Assembly (NCBI GenBank): GCA_965263035.1
Contig: OZ253580.1
Coordinates: 4,672,001-4,736,000 of the forward strand
Direction: 5' to 3'
DNA: 64,000 nucleotides
From: Acidobacteriota bacterium
GTDB taxonomy: Bacteria; Acidobacteriota; UBA6911; RPQK01; JAJDTT01
Below, piece after piece: positions 5,127 to 40,211 of the stretch; within the stretch, counting starts at the first letter, position 1; each line of letters opens with the position of its first letter. The position numbers were made by a program, and so were the translations under genes. The notes beneath the pieces were generated by a model. The model saw only the letters and a list, made by a program, of their open reading frames with translations. It did not search any database and was not told the origin of the DNA.

Positions 5127-6593
5127 ATGGATCCCTGGAAGCGATATCGACTGATGCAGACCCGGCGCCACTTCTTCGGCGCCACCGCCGCCGGAATCGG
5201 GACCGCCGCCCTGGGATCGCTGCTCCAAGAGGACCTTCAGGCTGCCCGGAGCACCGGAGACGGATCCGCTACGGCTTCTTTTCCCGGACTCGCACCCCTG
5301 CCCCACTTCGCCCCCACGGCCAAGCGGGTGATCTGGCTGTTCCAGTCGGGAGGCCCCTCCCAGATGGACCTGTTCGACTACAAGCCGGCCCTGACCCCCC
5401 GCCGCGGCGAGGAACTGCCCGAATCCATCCGCCAGGGCCAGCGCCTCACCAGCATGACCTCCGAGCAGGGCAGTTTTCCCGTGGCTCCGTCCATCTACGA
5501 GTTCGCCCAACACGGCCAGTCGGGAGCCTGGATCAGCGAACTCCTGCCCCGGACCGCCGAGATCGCCGACGACCTCTGCTTCATCCGGTCCATGCATACC
5601 GAGGCCATCAATCACGATCCGGCCGTCACCTTTCTCCTGACCGGCGCGCAGATCGCGGGGCGGCCCAGTCTGGGCTCCTGGTTGGCCTACGGTCTGGGGA
5701 ACGAGAACAGCAACCTGCCGGCGTTCGTGGTCATGGTCACCCAGGGGACCGGAGGACAGCCGCTCTACGACCGCCTCTGGGGAAGCGGCTTCCTGCCCAG
5801 CCGCTACCAGGGGGTCAAGTTCCGTTCGGTGGGGGATCCGGTCCTCTACCTCTCCGATCCCAAGGGCTTCGGACGGGAGAGCCGGCGGCATTTTCTGGAT
5901 GCCCTGAACCGCATGAACCGGATCAAGCTGGAGGAGTCCGGCGACCCGGAGATCTCGGCCCGGATCTCCCAATACGAAATGGCCTTCCGCATGCAGACCT
6001 CAGTGCCCGAGCTCACCGACCTGTCGGGAGAGCCGGAACACATCTTCCAACTCTACGGCGAGGACGCCCGAAAGCCGGGCACCTTCGCCTCCAACTGTCT
6101 GCTCGCCCGGCGCCTGGCCGAGCGGGGGGTGCGTTTCATCCAGGTCTTCCACCGGGGTTGGGATCAACACGGGAAGCTGCCCACCGCCCTCCCCCGGCAG
6201 TGCAAGGCCACCGACCAGGCCTCGGCCGCGCTGGTGCAGGACCTGAAGCAGAGGGGAATGCTGGAGGACACGCTGGTGGTCTGGGGCGGCGAGTTCGGGA
6301 GAACCGTCTACTGCCAGGGACCGCTGACCGAGTCCGACTACGGCCGCGACCATCATCCCCGGTGCTTCACCATCTGGATGACCGGCGGCGGCGTCCGTCC
6401 GGGCGTGGTCCTGGGGGAGACCGACGAGTTCTCCTACAACATCACCCGGGACCCGGTCCACGTCCACGACCTGCAGGCCACCCTCCTTCACTGCCTGGGC
6501 ATCGACCACACGCGGCTGACCTACAAGTACCAGGGCCGCCACTTCCGGCTCACCGACGTCCACGGCGAGGTGTTGGACCGAATCCTGGTCTAA
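5127..6593 (+). CDS. DUF1501 family protein (Tat-exported)
   Basis: TRRHFF Tat motif, [23 protein letters not shown] and GRDH motifs; directly downstream of the PSD1 gene. Confidence 0.9.
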
Positions 6594-31613: not shown

Positions 31614-34496
31614 ATGAAGAAAAGGCAGAGTGCCTCCGTCTCGTTGGTTCTGATCTTGGTCCTGTCGGGATGCGGGTCCCAGGAATCGGCCATGGACTCG
31701 AAGGTCGAGACGGTTCCCGTCTCCGACATCCGATTCCCCGACTCGGTGTTTCGGGTCACCCTGGGCCTCACCGATTCGGAGCCCCGGGACTGGTCGGGGA
31801 ATCTCCGCCTCCAGCCGGGCCAGAAAGCGGAGCTGGTCCCCGAGCACTTCCGCGCCGGCGTGTACCGCCACGACTTCGGCGCCGGCTGGCGCACCATTGT
31901 CGACCCGAAGATCCCCAACGACCGGCTCACGGGGCCCGACAGCTGGCTGGCGCACACCACCCTTGACTGGGTTCGCTATAAGGATCGAGCCCGGATCCGT
32001 CATCCCAGCCTCTTCGTCCGGCTCTGGGACAATCCGGACCAAGCGCCGTTCCAGGTCCGGGCCGGAGGACAGGACTTCTCCGTGGGACCGGCGGATCTGC
32101 CGTTGTTCCATCCCGGGTCCCGGCTCGGAGATCGAGTGCGCGTGGAGCGGGTGCCTCCGGCGGCTCAGGTGGCTCGGGAGCGGACCGGCCAGCAGGACTA
32201 TCCGGCCCTCATGGCCACCCCTTCGGGAGACCTCTGGGCCGCATGGCAGGAGTATGACGAGCGCCATCACGATTCGGTCTGCGTCCGGCGCAAGCAGGGG
32301 GATGCCTGGGGACCGGTCTGGGTCCTGGCCCGGGAGGCGGACGTGTTTCGCACCGCTCTGGCGTACGACTCAGACGGCGGGGTCTGGGCTATCTGGTCCA
32401 TGCAGGTGGAGGGGAACTGGGATCTGTACGCCCGCCGCCATGACGGCGGGGGCTGGTCCGGTCTTCACCGGCTGACCAGGGAGGCGGGTCCCGACATCTA
32501 TCACCGGGCCGTCACCGACCAGTCGGGGAACCTCTGGCTGATCTGGCAGAAGGTCATCGAGGGACGGAGCCAGATCGTGGCCCGGAGCTACGACGGCTCC
32601 GGGTGGAGTGACACGGTCCAGCTCAGTGAGGGTGTTTCCGCCGAAGGGAACAACTGGACCCCGTCGGTGGCTGCCGGCGAATCGGGGTCGGTGGCCGTGG
32701 CCTGGGACGGGTATGCGGCAGGGAACTACGACGTTTACCTGAGGCGATACTCTGCCGGCGAGTGGCAGCCGGTCCAGGTGGTGGCGGGGACCGAGCGCTT
32801 CGAGGCGGCCCCGACGGTTGCCGTGGACCCGCAGGACCGCATCTGGGTGGCCTGGCACGAGTCGGGCACCGAGTGGGGCAAGGACACGGGCCGTTTGGTT
32901 CAACGCAAGGGGACGGAGCTGAGGGAGTCCCGTTGGTTGGGCCTGGCCTGCGTGGACGGCGAGCGACTGCTCACCACGGCGCATCCCCTGGGCGATCGCC
33001 TGGATGCGGCCCGCGAGTGGGAGCTTCCCCATCTCCAGATCGACTCGGACGGTCACCCCTGGCTGCTGGTCCGCAACGTCACCAAGCGGGGTCCTGCCGG
33101 GAGGCCTCGGTACTTCCCCATGTGGGAAGTCCACGTCACCCGCTACGACGGTTCCCGGTGGAGTGATCTGGTCCGGGTGCGGCAGAGCAGCGGGCGGAAC
33201 GACATGTCGCCGGCCACGGCTCTCGATGCGGACGGACGCGTCTGGGGCATCTGGGCCACCGACACGCGGAGCGCCAAGTCGGCATTGCCGCAGTATGGGC
33301 GAGTGATGGTCTCCCCCCTGGGATCGAGCCCGGGTCGGAAGACCCTGGCCCTGCAGCCCTGGACGCCGGCCGCGGTCGGTTCGGTGGAGCGGATCCATCC
33401 CGACGAGGCCGAGCAGGTGGAGCGGATCCGCTCCTATCGGGTGGAGGCCGGCGGGAAGACCTACTTCATCTACCGGGGCGACACCCACCGGCACACGGAC
33501 ATCTCTCTGGACGGGGGCGGCGACGGCGGTCTGCTGGACGCCTACCGGTACGCGCGGGACGCCGCCGCCATGGACTTTCTGGGAACCTCGGACCACAATC
33601 ACGAAGTGGCCGAGCCGTACGCTTGGTGGCGGACCCAGAAGTTCGCCGATCTGTTCCAGCTCGAAGACAATTTCACCGCGTTCTATGCCTACGAGCGCTC
33701 GGTGCAGTTTCCCAACGGTCACCGGAACGTCCTCTTCACCCAGCGCGGAAACAATATCCTGGAAGTGCTCACGGCGGAACGCATGGGTCTGGACGGGGCC
33801 GAGCGCCTCTTCGGTTACCTGCGTCGGACCGGGGGCACCTCCATCCCCCACACCATCGCCACCGGGGCCGGAACCGACTGGCGGGACTCCGATCCCGAGG
33901 TGGAGACGCTGCTGGAGATCTACCAGGGCATGCGCGACACCTACGAGCATCCGGGGTCCCCTCGTCCCAAGACGCTGGAGCCCACGCCGACGCTCCAGGA
34001 AAACAATTCGCCTTCCCGCCGCGACGGCACCGCGTGGAGCGCTCTGGAGAAGGGTCTCAAGCTGGGTTTCATCGCCTCTTCGGATCACCTTTCGACCCAC
34101 ATCAGCTATGCCTGTCTCATCGCGGAGCGCCTGACCCGGGAGGGTCTGATGGAGGCCATACGCGCCCGCCGGGCCTATGGCGCCACCGACAACATCGTGC
34201 TGGACGTTCGGTTCGTGGGGTCCGGCGGAGAGCATCTGATGGGGGAGATCTTCACCAGTTCTCAGCCGGTGAGAATCCAGGCGACCATACTGGGAACCGG
34301 GATTATCAAGCGGGTGGACCTGATCAAGGACAACCGGGTCCTCTACTCGGTGGAACCCGGTCAGACCACGTTCCGTCTGGACTTCGCGGACGGCGACGCG
34401 GCCGACTCGGGTGAGAGCTACTACTACATTCGGGTCCTGCAGGAGGACGGCGAGATCGCCTGGGGCTCTCCGGCCTGGGTGACCTACGAAATGTAG
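31614..34496 (+). CDS. Lipoprotein: beta-propeller plus PHP-type (DUF3604/CehA-like) metallohydrolase
   Basis: Lipobox LSGC; repeated propeller blades; GDTHRHT, SDH, GHRNV, IPH and GFIASSDH metal ligands. Confidence 0.8.
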   Translation: MKKRQSASVSLVLILVLSGCGSQESAMDSKVETVPVSDIRFPDSVFRVTLGLTDSEPRDWSGNLRLQPGQKAELVPEHFRAGVYRHDFGAGWRTIVDPKIPNDRLTGPDSWLAHTTLDWVRYKDRARIRHPSLFVRLWDNPDQAPFQVRAGGQDFSVGPADLPLFHPGSRLGDRVRVERVPPAAQVARERTGQQDYPALMATPSGDLWAAWQEYDERHHDSVCVRRKQGDAWGPVWVLAREADVFRTALAYDSDGGVWAIWSMQVEGNWDLYARRHDGGGWSGLHRLTREAGPDIYHRAVTDQSGNLWLIWQKVIEGRSQIVARSYDGSGWSDTVQLSEGVSAEGNNWTPSVAAGESGSVAVAWDGYAAGNYDVYLRRYSAGEWQPVQVVAGTERFEAAPTVAVDPQDRIWVAWHESGTEWGKDTGRLVQRKGTELRESRWLGLACVDGERLLTTAHPLGDRLDAAREWELPHLQIDSDGHPWLLVRNVTKRGPAGRPRYFPMWEVHVTRYDGSRWSDLVRVRQSSGRNDMSPATALDADGRVWGIWATDTRSAKSALPQYGRVMVSPLGSSPGRKTLALQPWTPAAVGSVERIHPDEAEQVERIRSYRVEAGGKTYFIYRGDTHRHTDISLDGGGDGGLLDAYRYARDAAAMDFLGTSDHNHEVAEPYAWWRTQKFADLFQLEDNFTAFYAYERSVQFPNGHRNVLFTQRGNNILEVLTAERMGLDGAERLFGYLRRTGGTSIPHTIATGAGTDWRDSDPEVETLLEIYQGMRDTYEHPGSPRPKTLEPTPTLQENNSPSRRDGTAWSALEKGLKLGFIASSDHLSTHISYACLIAERLTREGLMEAIRARRAYGATDNIVLDVRFVGSGGEHLMGEIFTSSQPVRIQATILGTGIIKRVDLIKDNRVLYSVEPGQTTFRLDFADGDAADSGESYYYIRVLQEDGEIAWGSPAWVTYEM

Positions 34497-34531
34497 CCTC
34501 TTCCGCGCGACAGACTTCCAAGGAAATTCCC

Positions 34532-35635
34532 ATGCTGGAAATCGTGGACCGAGGCATCCTCTCTCATGTCCCCGGGCGCGGCGCCTACTTTCCCTGCGTG
34601 AGGCCGCTTCAGGACGGATCCCTGCTGGCGGCGCAGCACGTGGGGAGCGGCTTGTGCTCTCCGGACAATCACATCGAGGTGTTGCGCTCCACCGCTGGGG
34701 GCCGCAGCTGGACCAATGAAGGCAGCATCCACGGCGGTCTCCCGGCGGATGGATGGTGCTACCGGGCGCCCATTATCGCTCCCTTGGAGGATGGCAACCT
34801 GTTGATGGCGGCCGCCCGTTATCTCCTGGACAACGACGAGATGTACAATCCGGCCACCGAGGGATTGAAGCCGACTCAGATGGTCCTTTTCCGCTCTTCC
34901 GATCAGGGCCGATCCTGGTCGGGTCCCGAGGTGGTGCCCAACCCGCTGCCTCCCGAGAAATACGTGAGCAGCCTTTCGGGTCAGCTTCTGATTCTCGCGC
35001 CCGACCGCTGGATGTTTCCGTTCGAGACCTGGAAGCCGGATGGCTACGAGGGGCCGGTGGACCAGAAGGCGGGGGCCGTTTTCTCACCGGATCAGGGACA
35101 GACCTGGGAAGAGTGGTCAGTGGTGGCCGACGACGTGGAGGAACGCCTCCACTACGGTGACCAGATGCAGACTGTGTTGCCGGATGGACGGGTCTACACC
35201 ACCCTCTGGACCCGGACCTGGGGCGTGGGACAGGGAGAGGACGTCAACGATCACTGGGTCGTTTCCGAGGACGCCGGCCGGACCTGGAGCGAACCTCGTC
35301 CCACCAACTTGCAGGGACAGCTCTGTGCCCCCATCGCGCTTCCCGACGGCCGGGTGGCGGCCATCTACAATTTTCGCCGCGAACCCCAGGGGATCCACGT
35401 CGCGATCACCGAAGATCTGGAGAATTACGACGTCGAAAACCAGGCCGTGGTGTTTCGGGCCGGCGAGGAAACCATGACGGCGAAAGCGGTGGACGAGTTC
35501 ATCGACGCCCACCAGAAGATCGCCTTCGGCCGGCCCTGGGGGATCCTCTTGCCGGATGGCGACCTGCTGGTCTACTTCTGGTGCACCGTCGAATCCGTCA
35601 CCCACAACCGCTGGGTCCGGCTCAGGATCTCGTGA
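34532..35635 (+). CDS. Sialidase-like BNR/Asp-box protein
   Basis: YFP motif; Asp-boxes STAGGRSW, SSDQGRSW, SPDQGQTW, SEDAGRTW. Confidence 0.85.
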   Translation: MLEIVDRGILSHVPGRGAYFPCVRPLQDGSLLAAQHVGSGLCSPDNHIEVLRSTAGGRSWTNEGSIHGGLPADGWCYRAPIIAPLEDGNLLMAAARYLLDNDEMYNPATEGLKPTQMVLFRSSDQGRSWSGPEVVPNPLPPEKYVSSLSGQLLILAPDRWMFPFETWKPDGYEGPVDQKAGAVFSPDQGQTWEEWSVVADDVEERLHYGDQMQTVLPDGRVYTTLWTRTWGVGQGEDVNDHWVVSEDAGRTWSEPRPTNLQGQLCAPIALPDGRVAAIYNFRREPQGIHVAITEDLENYDVENQAVVFRAGEETMTAKAVDEFIDAHQKIAFGRPWGILLPDGDLLVYFWCTVESVTHNRWVRLRIS

Positions 35636-35746
35636 CGTGCGAATAGATCTCACATGCCAGCCGGTGGGGGAATTCCCACCCGGATTCACATCTTCCAGGA
35701 TTGGGTGCGATCGGTCTCGCGGTCGTCCGTTCCCCGTATTCCGGTT

Positions 35747-35965
35747 TCAGGCGCGCTCACCGGGCTGACGGTCGTCAACGGCTGCCGGAGGCGGGACGGT
35801 GAACCTTTTTCCTTGTTCCTCGGCGGCCATGCGCGCGCGGTTCCAGGATTCCCAGCGCTTGCGCTCTCTGACACGCCCCTCGGCATGCCCCTCGGCATGC
35901 CCCTCAGTACGTCCCTTGGCGAGCCCCTTGGCGTAACGTCGATTGAGATACCATTCCGAAAACAT
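35747..35965 (-). CDS. 72-aa stand-alone copy of the C-terminal module of the adjacent membrane protein
   Basis: Near-identical to 36067-36273 starting at the ATG; one extra 12-bp EGHA unit. Confidence 0.65.
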   Translation of the reverse strand: MFSEWYLNRRYAKGLAKGRTEGHAEGHAEGRVRERKRWESWNRARMAAEEQGKRFTVPPPAAVDDRQPGERA

Positions 35966-36066
35966 TTTTCCCGCCCTTAAGAAATTCCAAGCGGAAGCCT
36001 GGATACTGTCGGCCGCCTATACTCCTCTGTCGGAGATTAGGGTCCGGTTGGAATCTGAAGAATCTT

Positions 36067-36516
36067 TCACGCGCGCTCACCGGTCTGATGATCGTCAGCG
36101 GCTGCAGGAGGTAGCTTGGTGAAACTTTTTCCTTGTTCCTCGGCGGCCATGCGCGCGCGGTTCCAGGATTCCCAGCGCTTGCGCTCTCTGACACGCCCCT
36201 CGGCATGCCCCTCAGTACGTCCCTTGGCGAGCCCCTTGGCGTAACGTCGATTCAGATACCATTCCGAAAACATCCTACCCACCTCCACGGAAACCACGCT
36301 CCAGGCGGCGACCACGACGACCACGGGAGACAGCCCTCGCGCGATGGCGAGGAACGTTTCCATGTTGCCGTCCTTCGTCCCACTGGCTACCTCATGCCAG
36401 ACGACCAGAGTCGTGGTCACGATAACAAGTGCCACAAAGAGTTTGAAGTAGGTGTCCCGCCATGTCGCCGGGACGCTCCAAATCGACTCTCTGTACCTCA
36501 CCGATTCCTTCTCCAT
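36067..36516 (-). CDS. 2-TM membrane protein with G-x-x-x helical C-tail and internal RBS
   Basis: RESIWSV, two hydrophobic helices, then GGAGGT-N7-ATG (36273) and KGLAKGRTEGHAEGRVRE. Confidence 0.75.
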   Translation of the reverse strand: MEKESVRYRESIWSVPATWRDTYFKLFVALVIVTTTLVVWHEVASGTKDGNMETFLAIARGLSPVVVVVAAWSVVSVEVGRMFSEWYLNRRYAKGLAKGRTEGHAEGRVRERKRWESWNRARMAAEEQGKSFTKLPPAAADDHQTGERA

Positions 36517-36761
36517 CCCGTGACCGAGGCGCTTCAAGCCTTCTCCGAAGGCCGATTTGGAGTCGCGGATCTTCGATCTCGGTATTCGTTCCTACTCCCG
36601 GCAGGAGTCCCGTCAAATCTTGCCTACAATCCAGATAACGAATGAATTTAAGAATCTGCAACCGATTCTCCGGTTATCCAATCGGAACCAGTGATTTGCT
36701 CGGACCTGCGATCTATTCTACCGGATGGCGCGTGGTGAAGGTTCTCGCGGAATCGGGACCC

Positions 36762-37508
36762 TCAGCCGGAGGCGGTTCCCAAGAGGGAGGCGGATTCCCG
36801 GTCCAGATAGAGATGGCAATCGGCGTGGGTCCTCAGTATGGATGAGGGGTGCAGCGGAGTGACTTCGCCTTGCACGCAGTTGCGGACCGCCTCGGCCTTG
36901 CGGATGCCGGGAACCGTGCAGACGATGGACCTGGCCTTCAGGATCTGGCGGATGGACATGGAGACCGCCTGGGCCGGCACCTTGTCGATGCTGGCGAACC
37001 ACCCCTCGGAGACCTGCTGCTGCCGGCAGGGGGCGTCGAGGGTGACCAGGATATAGGGCTCCTCGGTCTCGAAATCGGCGGGCGGATCGTTGAAGGCCAG
37101 GTGGCCGTTCTCTCCGATGCCGATGAAGGCGACGTCGATCGGGCCCTCTTGGATGAGATCTGAGATCCGATGGCATTCGGCCTGAGGGTCGGGCGCCTCG
37201 CCCCGGATGAAGTGGACCTCTCCCGGATGCACCCGATTCACCAGGCGTTTCCGGAGATAGCGGCGGAAGCTGGCGGGGTGGGTTTCGGAGATCCCGGTGT
37301 ACTCGTCCAAGTGAAACATGGTCGTGCGGGACCAGTCGATCGATCGATCCGCGGTGAGTGCCGCCATGAAGTCGAACTGCGAGCTGCCCGTGGCCACGCA
37401 GAATCTGGCGGTCCCCTGCCGGTCGATGGCCTCCCGCAGTTTGGCTGAGGCCCTGGCGGCGGCGGCTTGGCTGGTGGTGGCCTTGTCCTTCTGTCGAACG
37501 ATCTCCAT
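36762..37508 (-). CDS. nagB: Glucosamine-6-phosphate deaminase
   Basis: ATGSS, HLDEY, GIGENGHLAFNDP and CRQQQ motifs. Confidence 0.88.
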   Translation of the reverse strand: MEIVRQKDKATTSQAAAARASAKLREAIDRQGTARFCVATGSSQFDFMAALTADRSIDWSRTTMFHLDEYTGISETHPASFRRYLRKRLVNRVHPGEVHFIRGEAPDPQAECHRISDLIQEGPIDVAFIGIGENGHLAFNDPPADFETEEPYILVTLDAPCRQQQVSEGWFASIDKVPAQAVSMSIRQILKARSIVCTVPGIRKAEAVRNCVQGEVTPLHPSSILRTHADCHLYLDRESASLLGTASG

Positions 37509-37693
37509 GGGACTCCCCCCGTTGCACCCAGTTGCGATGCGTGCCCCCCCGAGGGACCGAATCCCTCACGCCCAGTCTACTACTCGGGGCCGCTCGCGGC
37601 ACTTCCAACAACCCGGTTCATCTGTGATGATATGAACTCGGCCCCGCTATCGGCAGCGGACCCGGAACCGAAGGGCGCGAAAGGAAACAGGAC

Positions 37694-38428
37694 ATGAACC
37701 GATCTGAAATGCTGAAAGAACTCAAGAATTTCGACACCCCCTCCATCACCAACGTGGTGGCCACGTATCCCGACCATCCCTTGTGCCTGGGGCTCTACAA
37801 TCCCTGGTCCACGAACTGGTACACGGACCAGTCGATTCGCTGCATGTATCCCGAATTGGGCCGGACCGTGGGTTACGCTGTCACCTGCATCTTCGGGCTC
37901 CCCGATCCCAACTACAAGCAACTGACCTTCATCGACGTGCTGGAGGCCATGGAGGCGTCCGAGCAGCCCACGGTCCTGATCTTCCAGCAGAATTTCCCGC
38001 CCGAAATTGCCGGCAAGGTGGGCCTGTCGGGAGGCAACATGACTTCCGCCCTCAAGGCCATCGGCTGCGTGGCGGCCATCTCCAACGGTCCGTCCCGAGA
38101 TCTGGACGAGATCCGTCCCATGAAATTCCAGTATCTGCTCAGCGGGGCCACTCCCGGCCACGGCCCCACGGCCCTCCACGCCGTCAACGTGCCGGTGACG
38201 GTGGCGGGCATGGACGTTTCGCCCGGCGAGATCATCCACATGGACGAAAACGGCGCCTGCAAGTTCCCCGCGGACAAGCTTGATGCGGTGCTGATGAACG
38301 TCCGGGCCATGCAGCAGGAAGAGGAGTCGCGAATGGCACGGTTGCAGGCAGCGGGCAGCGCCGCCGAGATCCGTGAGATCTTCAGCCGCCACGTCTACGG
38401 GGAGAAGCAGGAAGACGGCGGCGAATGA
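37694..38428 (+). CDS. RraA/HMG-aldolase family protein
   Basis: DTPSITN, GYAVT, SRDLDE and VSPGEIIHMDENG motifs. Confidence 0.85.
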   Translation: MNRSEMLKELKNFDTPSITNVVATYPDHPLCLGLYNPWSTNWYTDQSIRCMYPELGRTVGYAVTCIFGLPDPNYKQLTFIDVLEAMEASEQPTVLIFQQNFPPEIAGKVGLSGGNMTSALKAIGCVAAISNGPSRDLDEIRPMKFQYLLSGATPGHGPTALHAVNVPVTVAGMDVSPGEIIHMDENGACKFPADKLDAVLMNVRAMQQEEESRMARLQAAGSAAEIREIFSRHVYGEKQEDGGE

Positions 38429-39171
38429 ATTCGGGGCCTGACCGAAACGGCGATTGGACCAACCGGCTCCGCTGTTCGATTCTGACGTTTCTGAGCGTCG
38501 GCCTCCTGTGCGGATGCGGCGGTCCGACCTCCAGCGAGGAGCCCGGTTTCGTGTCCATCTTCGACGGCGAGAGTCTCGAGGGTTGGCGCGCCGCCGGGGG
38601 CGGGACGAGCCGGGACTGGTCCGTTCAGGATGGTCGACTGGTCGGAATCTGCCTGGGGAGGTCTTCTTACCTGCTCTGGAAGGACCAGGAACTGCGCGAC
38701 TTCGAGCTTGAGCTGAGCTACCGGCTGCTGACCGAGGCCAACACCGGGATCGACATCCGGTCCCGGGTCGACGTGACCGGGAAGCGCCCGTTCGAGAGCT
38801 ACCACGCCGACCTGGGTCACGTAGGCATTGGAAAGAACATACTGGGCTCCTGGGATTTCCACTTCGGCTCCCGCCCCGAACCCGACAATCCCCGCGGGAC
38901 CCGGCTGGTCATCGGGGCCGACGAGACCCCGCAGTTGACCGCTATCGAAGATCCGCTGACACTGGATCATGTGAACCGCCGCCCCGAATGGAATCGGGTC
39001 CACGTCATCGCCCGCGGCAACCACTGCCGGTTTTTCATCAACGGCAAGCTGTCGTCCGAATTCACCGACAACGCCGAGTCCGGACGTCTGGAGGAGGGCG
39101 GCATTGCATTGCAACTTCACGACCCGGGAGTCCACGTGGAGTTCAAGGACATCCGGCTCAAGAGATTGTGA
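38425..39171 (+). CDS. DUF1080 (3-keto-disaccharide hydrolase-like) lipoprotein
   Basis: FDGESLEGW, DFELEL, WN.V and GGIALQLH...VEFKDIRLK motifs; LCGC lipobox. Confidence 0.88.
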   Translation: MNSGPDRNGDWTNRLRCSILTFLSVGLLCGCGGPTSSEEPGFVSIFDGESLEGWRAAGGGTSRDWSVQDGRLVGICLGRSSYLLWKDQELRDFELELSYRLLTEANTGIDIRSRVDVTGKRPFESYHADLGHVGIGKNILGSWDFHFGSRPEPDNPRGTRLVIGADETPQLTAIEDPLTLDHVNRRPEWNRVHVIARGNHCRFFINGKLSSEFTDNAESGRLEEGGIALQLHDPGVHVEFKDIRLKRL

Positions 39172-39197
39172 CCGGGAGTCGCCAGGAGGAAAGAATT

Positions 39198-40211
39198 ATG
39201 AACAGAAGGTATTTCATGGTGCAGGCCGTTGCCCTGGGGAGCATTTTGGGCCTCTCCTGGTGGTTGACCGAATCCGGCGGAACCATCTCGGGGAGTGCTG
39301 CTGCACCGGATAAGGTGAACTTGGCCGTTGGTTATCAGGTCGACCCGGAATGGCCCCGTAAGCCCGCCGGTCTCGAATGGGGACAGATGCCCGGTCTGTA
39401 CGTCGATGCCAAGGACCAGGTCTGGATCTTCCATCGGGGTAAGGATCCCGTCCAGGTCTACGGGCAGGACGGGTCCCTGGTCCGATCCTGGGAAGACAAG
39501 GGCTTCAAGAGTGCCCACCATATGAAGATCGGGCCTGAGGGAAACGTCTGGCTGGCGGACGCCGGCGCCCACGCGGTCTACAAGTTCACGCCCGAGGGTA
39601 AGCTGCTCATGACCCTGGGCACTCCGGGCGAGGCGGGAGAGGACGGCCGCCACTTCAACCGTCCCACCGATATGGCCATCACGCCCGCCGGGGACATTTT
39701 CGTCACCGACGGCTACGGAAACAGCCGGGTCGTCCACTTCGACGCCGACGGCCGTTTCGTCAGGACTTGGGGAAAGTTGGGAACGGCTCCGGGCGAATTC
39801 GACACGCCCCACGGCATCGTCGTGGACTCCAAGGGCCGTCTCTATGTTGCGGACCGCAGCAACGCCCGGGTCCAGGTCTTCGAGTCCGACGGCCGCTTCC
39901 TGGCCGAGTGGCGGAACCTCCTGGTGCCCTGGGGGCTCTGGGTGACCAAGACCGACGAAATCTACGCCTGCGGGTCCTCGCCCATGCGGTGGGGAAGCGG
40001 TGGCCGCTTGGGCGCCCCGCCCAAGGACCAGATCCTCATGAAGTTCAACACGGAAGGCCGGGTCCTAGAGCACTGGACCTTTCCCCTGAGCGCGATGGGG
40101 AAGCCGGGCTCGTTGAACTGGGTCCATGCCGTCGCCGTCGACTCCAAGGGGGACGTCTACCTGGGCGACATCCAAGGCAGCCGGGTCCAGCGGATGGTGC
40201 GCCTGAACTAG
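39198..40211 (+). CDS. NHL-repeat protein (peptidyl-alpha-hydroxyglycine lyase-like)
   Basis: FNRPTDMA, DGYGNSRV and FDTPHGIVVD..LYVADRSNARVQVF motifs. Confidence 0.9.
   Translation: MNRRYFMVQAVALGSILGLSWWLTESGGTISGSAAAPDKVNLAVGYQVDPEWPRKPAGLEWGQMPGLYVDAKDQVWIFHRGKDPVQVYGQDGSLVRSWEDKGFKSAHHMKIGPEGNVWLADAGAHAVYKFTPEGKLLMTLGTPGEAGEDGRHFNRPTDMAITPAGDIFVTDGYGNSRVVHFDADGRFVRTWGKLGTAPGEFDTPHGIVVDSKGRLYVADRSNARVQVFESDGRFLAEWRNLLVPWGLWVTKTDEIYACGSSPMRWGSGGRLGAPPKDQILMKFNTEGRVLEHWTFPLSAMGKPGSLNWVHAVAVDSKGDVYLGDIQGSRVQRMVRLN

Follow-up and report, generated by a model that had tools for sequence, protein, structure and literature searches.

On the minus strand of a 64,000-nucleotide stretch of an Acidobacteriota bacterium genome (GenBank assembly GCA_965263035.1, contig OZ253580.1, positions 4,672,001 to 4,736,000; the whole stretch is called the window, and positions are counted from its first letter), we identified a gene for a 149-amino acid protein with two transmembrane (TM) helices, here called the long gene, that contains a perfect Shine-Dalgarno (SD) sequence followed by an in-frame start codon at the exit of the second TM helix (TM2). 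Initiation at this internal start would yield the C-terminal 68 amino acids as a soluble module, and a free-standing short gene for a paralogue of the module begins 101 nt past the stop of the long gene. Our preferred explanation, held tentatively and at somewhat less than an even chance, is that the long and short proteins are proteoforms built on one helical module, which would pair through a helix of glycine-containing repeats.

The residues V-E-V-G-R-M at the end of TM2 are encoded by GTG GAG GTG GGT AGG ATG, in which GGAGGT (36286-36281) is followed by a spacer of 7 nt and then by ATG (36273-36271). An earlier annotation made from the letters of the window alone (the first-pass annotation) had described a two-TM gene at 36067-36516 with GGAGGT separated by 7 nt from an in-frame ATG at 36273, a 68-amino acid frame from that ATG and a downstream copy about 100 bp away, and all of these coordinates hold on the minus strand. 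When one genome per species was scanned, nine related loci (L001-L009) were found, all in metagenome-assembled genomes of Acidobacteriota, and the long genes of the window and of L001-L008 make up the comparison set of nine long genes. It was found that GGAGGTGGG-N4-start is present in all nine, the start being ATG in eight and GTG in L004, and that the S-V-E-V codons spanning the SD are invariant in all nine. The conservation of the SD and start across homologues, which the annotation had proposed as a check, was thus observed directly. Both replacements of the start codon of the module by a valine codon are GTG.

The pairing energy of the internal SD, calculated with the consensus anti-SD sequence (which may differ from the end of the 16S rRNA of the host itself), was -13.8 kcal/mol in the window and likewise throughout the nine long genes. 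This is stronger than the values for all 223 internal in-frame ATGs in the open reading frames (ORFs) of at least 250 amino acids in the window (best -10.8), and also stronger than those for all 32 first starts of the same ORFs (best -12.4). At the start of the long gene itself an SD is almost lacking (-2.9 in the window, and +0.4 to -2.9 over the nine long genes). The window contains 300 occurrences of GGAGG compared to 331 +/- 18 in dinucleotide-preserving shuffles, of which 99 of 100 have at least 300, a slight deficit that is compatible with mild avoidance of SD-like sequence inside genes; because GGAGG is slightly rarer than in the shuffles, the perfect internal SD stands out more.

The long protein belongs to a wider family, in which the methionine at the membrane boundary recurs. 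The long protein, used as the query of an exhaustive search without a profile, matched 459 representatives (clusters at 50% identity) at E <= 0.001, including 97 at E <= 1e-10, and most of the 459 are 120-175 amino acids long and align end to end. Members have an N-terminal (R/E)ESIWSVP, two TM helices and a head (M)(L/F)(A/S)E(R/K)YL.RRY, followed by a variable run of EG-containing four-residue units and then W..WN.RR..AE..GE.F.EPPP. The column at the end of TM2 is Glu in 136 of 148 representatives, and the boundary column is Met in 70 of 148. Of 140 full-length-like members, 112 (80%) have a Met 2-8 residues past the Glu, compared to 12% of the 7-residue control windows taken from the 45 preceding residues. 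The most conserved columns of the family are those of the terminal motif (W118, A125, F132, E134, P135 and P137 are nearly invariant), and not the repeats. A 69-amino acid protein of another clade, P0166, used as a query retrieved 109 proteins, many of them 52-90 amino acids long and starting with MLAERYL..., MVLAKLY... or similar; these vary by four-residue units within sub-clades, and some are encoded on megabase-size contigs. In the retrievals with the short gene and P0166 taken together, 66 of 135 short proteins start exactly at the Met column of the profile. A family-alignment search for shorter homologues (30-64 amino acids, 71 candidates) returned the clade of the window.

No Pfam, NCBIfam, PADLOC or PHROGs family covers the membrane domain of the long gene or of the family members. 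A protein language-model atlas contained only clusters of "hypothetical protein" without a name, commonest in Chloroflexota, and a search of its named clusters gave no usable match. We found no description of the long-form family in the literature, subscription-only papers being outside the search.

Reading upstream from the start of the short gene, an in-frame stop is reached after 17 codons with no other start codon in between, and there is no TM homology upstream of the gene. After the ATG, the two copies in the window are 99% identical over 105 non-repeat nt, whereas identity falls to 79% in the tail, the last 57 nt; therefore, a recent conversion tract is indicated. As the first-pass annotation had stated, the short gene has one additional 12-bp unit encoding EGHA, GAGGGGCATGCC. 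The statement that homology begins exactly at the ATG applies to the near-identity only: weaker homology reaches about 30 nt upstream of the ATG and includes the SD (an SD-like AAGGGCGGG at the short gene), and the tail is divergent.

Each long gene in the nine loci of the comparison set is followed directly by zero, one or two such copies, here called satellites. All eight free copies have an uninterrupted ORF, a start codon and an SD-like site; the latter is GAGGT or AAGGG located 5-9 nt before the ATG in a non-coding context; the duplication that forms a satellite begins about 30 nt upstream of the ATG, so it carries the SD along. The dN/dS ratio (nonsynonymous to synonymous substitution rates) of the eight free copies was 0.13 for the head and middle and 0.20 for all non-repeat codons, at a proportion of synonymous differences (pS) of about 0.4, and the values for the module inside the long genes were 0.11 and 0.24 for the same partitions. 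The tail after PPP evolves fast (0.33-0.56). These values indicate that the satellites are genuine genes under purifying selection. Two types of module, a long type with DDHQTG.RA and a short type with DDRQP..., are separated by their tail sequences and in a tree of 17 rows and 162 columns whose branches are mostly weakly supported; the short-type lineage is retained across genomes. Recombination between copies is also directly visible. The first satellite of L007 is 97-98% identical to the long module of the same locus, and the long genes of L002 and L004 bear short-type modules and precede the flank that usually comes after the last copy; the tree places the former with two satellites (96 in the Shimodaira-Hasegawa-like approximate likelihood ratio test) and the latter with another satellite (92). 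These two long genes look like deletion-fusions between copies. A six-frame profile scan of the window and the loci revealed no further family members.

The repeat unit of 12 bp encodes A-x-G-x, and the first unit is at residue 12 after the internal Met. The program Tandem Repeats Finder reported a period of 12 at 35875-35905, with 2.6 copies and 100% matches. The number of units ranges from 3 to 7 among the 17 copies in nine genomes: the long/short counts are 4/5 in the window, 6/5 in L001, 5/4 in L003, 4/3 in L005, 7/3/4 in L007 and 6/4 in L006 (with 3 in L009, which is in the same genome), and the single-copy loci L002, L004 and L008 have 4, 4 and 3. The counts are never equal between the copies of one genome, and this inequality is only suggestive of a non-random pattern (label permutation p = 0.045, not corrected for relatedness). 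The sequence of the unit also differs by genome, with EGHA in the window, EGRI in L001 and a 24-bp double unit EGRTQGRA in L007; therefore, local and recent slippage is indicated. Of the 26 database proteins of this clade retrieved with the short gene, four are 72 amino acids long, eight 68, five 64 and five 60.

An AlphaFold2 (AF2) model of the long form, calculated with 100 family sequences, has a predicted local distance difference test (pLDDT) value of 91.9 and a predicted template modeling (pTM) score of 0.63, with helices at residues 17-45 and 51-127. In this model TM2 is predicted to run unbroken through the whole module to the F-T-x-x-P-P turn, forming one continuous helix. Kyte-Doolittle analysis gave hydrophobic segments at residues 21-45 and 52-83. 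From N to C terminus, the module consists of the head MFSEWYLNRRY, four A-x-G-x units, the W..WN.R..A motif, F-T-x-x-P-P and an acidic tail. A Foldseek search of the Protein Data Bank (PDB) with the long-form model gave no structural neighbors at E <= 0.001, and module sequence profiles gave no meaningful match to the PDB.

Eight of the related loci are syntenic with the window, with the order nagB-like gene, long gene, zero to two short genes and BNR-repeat gene; the flanking genes common to the eight genomes are nagB-like, RraA-like, 3-keto-disaccharide hydrolase-like and BNR genes. The position of the locus among sugar-metabolism genes is fixed and vertically inherited. Three queries found no relatives among 72,556 plasmids and none among 50,697 phage records. 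The ninth locus, L009, is unlinked and present in the genome that contains L006. It is a lone short gene with a GTG start preceded by GGAGGTGGGAAGA, and at 5885-6003 a promoter-like block (CCATCC.GTAGAATGG.TCACAGG), of the kind found upstream of the long genes, is fused directly to the SD and the short gene. L009 looks like a natural derivative in which the promoter, the SD and the module were retained and the leader and membrane domain were lost. Its neighbors are housekeeping genes (Fur-rubrerythrin, Macro and oligopeptidase F).

In the explanation that we prefer, the long protein would have both termini inside the cell, with TM2 continuing as a cytoplasmic helix of about 45-60 residues that carries the variable A-x-G-x (GX3) run and closes with the conserved W..WN.R..A...G..F.EPPP. 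Soluble modules would come from two sources. The internal SD and ATG would supply a module with a repeat number always equal to that of the long form, and this would be the main partner; the zero to two satellite genes would supply modules with different repeat numbers, as orthogonal or competing partners. Along the face formed by the glycine repeats, the short forms may pair helix to helix, both among themselves and with the long form's tail, and the repeat number would decide which partners pair. Such pairing could set the oligomeric or active state of the long form, or poison it, a dominant-negative type of regulation. What the sequences show is the anatomy of the locus, the conserved internal start signal, purifying selection on the satellites, variation in repeat number and recombination between copies; the use of the internal start, the binding between the forms and the role of the membrane domain are inferred.

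The nearest precedent is the Rpn system. According to Zhong et al. (2023, PMC10400941), the long protein is defined by an N-terminal PD-(D/E)XK domain, and a small C-terminal protein, DUF4351 in some species, is initiated internally; RpnS is a three-helix bundle that dimerizes via its long first helix. The same text describes four-residue repeats that begin 8-20 residues after the Met and vary among close relatives, and it states that the short protein counteracts the long one only at a matched repeat number, a difference of one unit abolishing neutralization. It further reports that downstream rpnSs copies originate from local duplication and disappear through deletion or fusion, and that Rpn systems are enriched in defense islands. 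The locus in the window is similar in having a C-terminal module that would be translated separately, its internal start showing a strong and conserved sequence signature, four-residue repeats in a long helix that begin at residue 12 and vary in number among relatives, and free-standing downstream copies that appear to have been lost by deletion-fusion in L002 and L004. It is different in that the N-terminal part is a two-TM domain and not a PD-(D/E)XK nuclease, the module is modeled as part of a single continuous helix rather than as the three-helix bundle of RpnAS, and the locus is chromosomal, syntenic and vertically inherited, with no plasmid or phage match. The Transposase_31 nuclease domain (PF04754) did not match the long gene or 100 family members (the Escherichia coli RpnA control gave 1.6e-91), DUF4351 matched 0 of 67 short forms at E <= 0.1, and in hhalign the short-form profile matched E. 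coli RpnA with a probability of 0.18%. The module is therefore not homologous to RpnS. The first-pass annotation had proposed the Rpn logic for this locus, and the parallel in architecture is stronger than could be seen from the window.

Several points weigh against internal initiation. The pattern GGAGGT-N7-ATG occurs once in the window compared to 0.55 times expected, and at least once in 43 of 100 shuffles, so that by itself it is within chance in a GC-rich window. The synonymous-site test at the SD (a run of three to four invariant codons, p about 0.04-0.09) is weak because 26 of the 59 comparable codon columns with a conserved degenerate amino acid are invariant anyway, and the SD codons double as codons of the conserved V-E-V. 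Because short queries were used to retrieve the 135 short database proteins, the set carries a selection bias, and its members are known at the protein level only; some of those from other phyla may be gene-caller picks of the internal start and not separate genes, although in either case they would show the boundary Met being read as a start. It is accordingly conceivable, but in our judgment decidedly unlikely, that there is no internal initiation, that protein constraint at the membrane boundary produced the Met and the GGAGG incidentally (the Glu is near-invariant family-wide, hence GAG-G is partly forced), and that the satellites are ordinary small paralogues formed by partial tandem duplication. 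Against this are the duplications that start just upstream of the SD and retain it, the joining of a promoter-like block, SD and module in L009, the use of GTG in both Val replacements of the start, the enrichment of Met in the family, and the contrast between a long start that has no SD and an internal one stronger than any other tested in the window. The internal start appears to exceed chance through its pairing energy, its conservation in nine of nine long genes and the retention of the SD at the free copies. That the downstream copy is an untranscribed duplication relic, an outcome on which the first-pass annotation would have abandoned its proposal, is highly improbable: although no sigma-70 promoter can be recognized for the copy itself and a terminator-like hairpin is located upstream, the intact ORF, start and SD-like site in all eight free copies, the low dN/dS at the observed pS and the retention of the short-type lineage across genomes argue for a functional gene.

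An Rpn-like toxin-antitoxin system for phage defense, in which a toxic membrane effector such as a pore would be neutralized by the matched internal short form and released by infection, with satellites supplying other specificities, is unlikely in our estimation. All three Rpn hallmarks are present (the internal start signal, the four-residue repeats, and small downstream homologues that disappear by deletion or fusion), the repeats are hypervariable, a strong SD for the short form and none for the long form would yield an excess of the inhibitor, and the question whether other systems use this design was raised in a commentary by Koonin (PMC10400984). However, there was no PADLOC or PHROGs match and no relative in the plasmid and phage searches, the locus has fixed synteny between nagB-like and BNR genes in eight genomes with L009 also among housekeeping neighbors, and variable GxxxG runs occur in the housekeeping protein FliH as well (PMC2674601). 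The pore-like toxin, antitoxin and antiphage reading of the first-pass annotation thus received no direct support from family, plasmid, phage or context searches. It had also taken the free copy for an extra antitoxin or one of alternative specificity; because the free copy never matches the repeat number of the long gene, it would not be a cognate neutralizer if Rpn-type matching applied, and by this analogy "alternative specificity" would fit better than "extra antitoxin". A different possibility, also on the improbable side, is that the W..WN.R..A...G..F.EPPP end binds a cytoplasmic partner, which the long form would hold at the membrane with the repeat helix as a ruler; soluble short forms would compete for the partner, and helix-helix pairing would be unnecessary. 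This is in keeping with the location of the most conserved columns in the terminal motif and not in the repeats, with the interchangeability of modules seen in the long genes of L002 and L004, and with a repeat number that is free to vary, but no partner is encoded nearby in conserved linkage, the unequal repeat numbers within one genome are left unexplained, and the tail after PPP evolves fast. The narrower mechanism of pairing between long and short forms is preferred because the conserved housekeeping context argues against a mobile defense element.

The combination of an internal start, a hypervariable helix of four-residue repeats and downstream satellites is documented only for the Rpn nucleases; a full-text literature search for a membrane-protein counterpart yielded only the Rpn paper, the commentary on it and papers citing them, with subscription-only papers not covered. 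The same three features on an unrelated two-TM family would point to a convergent regulatory design and not to a quirk of one family. In its most far-reaching form, which we think improbable, this would be a second, evolutionarily independent and widespread instance of the Rpn design, in which membrane effectors of Chloroflexota and Acidobacteriota (459 clusters) are each held in check by a tail fragment translated from within the same gene, the unit number of the glycine-repeat helix is a pairing code that sets specificity, and the satellites, with purposely different unit numbers, are orthogonal partners or decoys. If so, it would answer the question posed in the Koonin commentary (PMC10400984), whether antitoxin-within-toxin regulation is general. 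The small size of the system (149 and 72 amino acids) makes it suited to asking whether the repeat number is a pairing code, and it also bears on whether internal starts commonly produce dominant-negative fragments. The internal start would be a source of annotation inconsistency as well, since gene callers split the family into long, truncated and short calls.

The phage holin/antiholin genes with dual starts are a further point of comparison: in these, only a few codons at the N terminus separate the starts, and both products are membrane proteins. The long protein resembles them as a small membrane protein with a charged cytoplasmic C-terminal tail, and holin genes give two products with opposing roles; unlike in holins, the short product here would have no membrane domain at all, and the neighbors are metabolic genes. 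Holin families gave no PHROGs or Pfam match, and there was no match to a phage record.

Two other families have comparable repeats. Trost and Moore (2009, PMC2674601) describe AxxxG(xxxG)mxxxA glycine repeats in FliH/YscL, with a number that differs widely between bacteria. The modules are similar in having a helical G-x-x-x run of variable number, and weak NCBIfam FliH matches fall exactly on the repeats; the scores are at most 36 bits compared to cut-offs of 180-293, however, there is no FliH C-terminal domain or flagellar context, and FliH itself lacks the TM anchor and internal start of the long form. In the Yae1-Lto1 complex, according to Paul et al. (2015, PMC4523923), a deca-GX3 motif, (G-x-x-x)n, is required for the complex of both proteins, and glycine mutations weaken it. 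At the E-value limits used, Pfam Yae1_N (PF09811) matched 36 of 67 short forms and 8 of 100 long members, the best E value among the short forms being 2.7e-7, and the window's own two proteins had no match at any threshold. Yae1 and Lto1 differ in that they are adaptors of eukaryotic Fe-S assembly and always have ten units, and the similarity covers the repeat only. By analogy, the likeness to Yae1 and FliH may be taken as a precedent for helix pairing via such repeats, and not as family membership.

The coordinates of the features of the locus are collected in Table 1.

Table 1. Features of the long gene, the short gene and their surroundings, with positions in the window
Feature	Position	Strand	Remarks
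Promoter-like block CTTCACC..CCATCCGGTAGAAT..TCGCAGG	36705..36740	-	About 190 nt upstream of the long start; invariant core in 9 aligned sequences, L009 among them
Long gene	36067..36516	-	149 amino acids: cytoplasmic N-terminal tail with ESIWSVP motif, two TM helices, C-terminal helical module
TM1	36382..36456	-	Residues 21-45; Kyte-Doolittle 21-45, AF2 helix 17-45
TM2	36274..36363	-	Residues 52-81; Kyte-Doolittle 52-83; terminates at the near-invariant Glu of V-E-V-G-R
Internal SD GGAGGT	36281..36286	-	Within V-E-V codons; identical in 9/9 long genes
Internal in-frame start codon, candidate internal translation initiation site	36271..36273	-	At TM2 exit; ATG in 8/9 loci, GTG in 1
C-module within the long gene	36067..36273	-	68 amino acids; inside the continuous helix 51-127 (AF2)
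Long-gene repeat array	36193..36240	-	4 units of 12 bp: AKGL AKGR TEGH AEGR
Long-short spacer	35966..36066	-	101 nt, conserved among loci; terminator-like hairpin 36003-35986, SD-like AAGGGCGGG 35978-35970
Short gene	35747..35965	-	72 amino acids, C-module paralogue, five A-x-G-x units, own tail type DDRQPGERA
Short-gene repeat array	35873..35932	-	5 units of 12 bp; two identical copies of GAGGGGCATGCC

The long-gene protein begins with MEKESVRYRESIWSVP..., and the conserved MEKES codon was taken as its start; this codon is ATG in eight and GTG in one of the nine related loci compared, and in a mechanical ORF list the long frame reaches further upstream, to a TTG at 36537. Ahead of the long gene, about 245 nt of intergenic sequence (36517-36761, minus strand) are well conserved, with an invariant block that contains TAGAAT. 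Because this block is located about 190 nt before the long start, a long leader is implied. A sigma-70 consensus scan gave no match at the promoter-like block or the short gene, and Rfam gave no match in 35500-36900. In L004 (5711-5757) the leader and promoter-like block are missing, and the nagB-like gene ends about 45 nt before the long gene; this locus combines several rearrangements, namely the GTG internal start, the absence of satellites and a short-type module in the long gene.

The hairpin in the long-short spacer, TCCAGGC-TTCC-GCTTGGA followed by ATTTCTT, is just ahead of the SD of the short gene and could attenuate read-through into the satellite. The scan for terminator-like hairpins found one site compared to 1.2 expected, which is not significant alone. 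The TTCCA...TGGAA stem is present in most loci and missing at the second short gene of L007.

The neighboring genes at 31614-35635 and 36762-40211 form a conserved block, 79-99% identical across eight genomes, that encodes a 960-amino acid secreted protein and BNR/sialidase-like, glucosamine-6-phosphate isomerase-like, RraA-like aldolase and 3-keto-disaccharide hydrolase-like proteins; a further protein of the block (ORF to 40211) is conserved in seven loci. These are probably genes of glycan or amino-sugar metabolism.

Plus-strand antisense ORFs (e.g., 36133-36645) were rejected as true genes, the homology and purifying selection being in the minus-strand frames, and matches of Pfam Anthrone_oxy (E 0.002, below the cut-off), Srg and SecE were dismissed as chance similarity of hydrophobic helices.

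Among the family members, P0120 and P0123 have two C-modules in tandem without a membrane domain, and P0084 is a long form plus a second, repeat-less module in one chain; because such proteins exist, module duplication and fusion recur in other clades. P0123 folded without an alignment, a weak proxy for helix pairing, gave a pLDDT of 62 and a pTM of 0.30, too low to be informative. The short database protein P0025 (68 amino acids) shifts after ...AAEEK to another reading frame of the same DNA (VSPSYLRQPLTIIRPVSARERF...) and is a frameshifted allele or a sequencing error. The long gene of L006 ends early at ...TVADGH (5669-5882), leaving a 70-amino acid module with six units; because it stops there, the acidic tail after the PPP motif seems dispensable, in agreement with the higher dN/dS of the tail.

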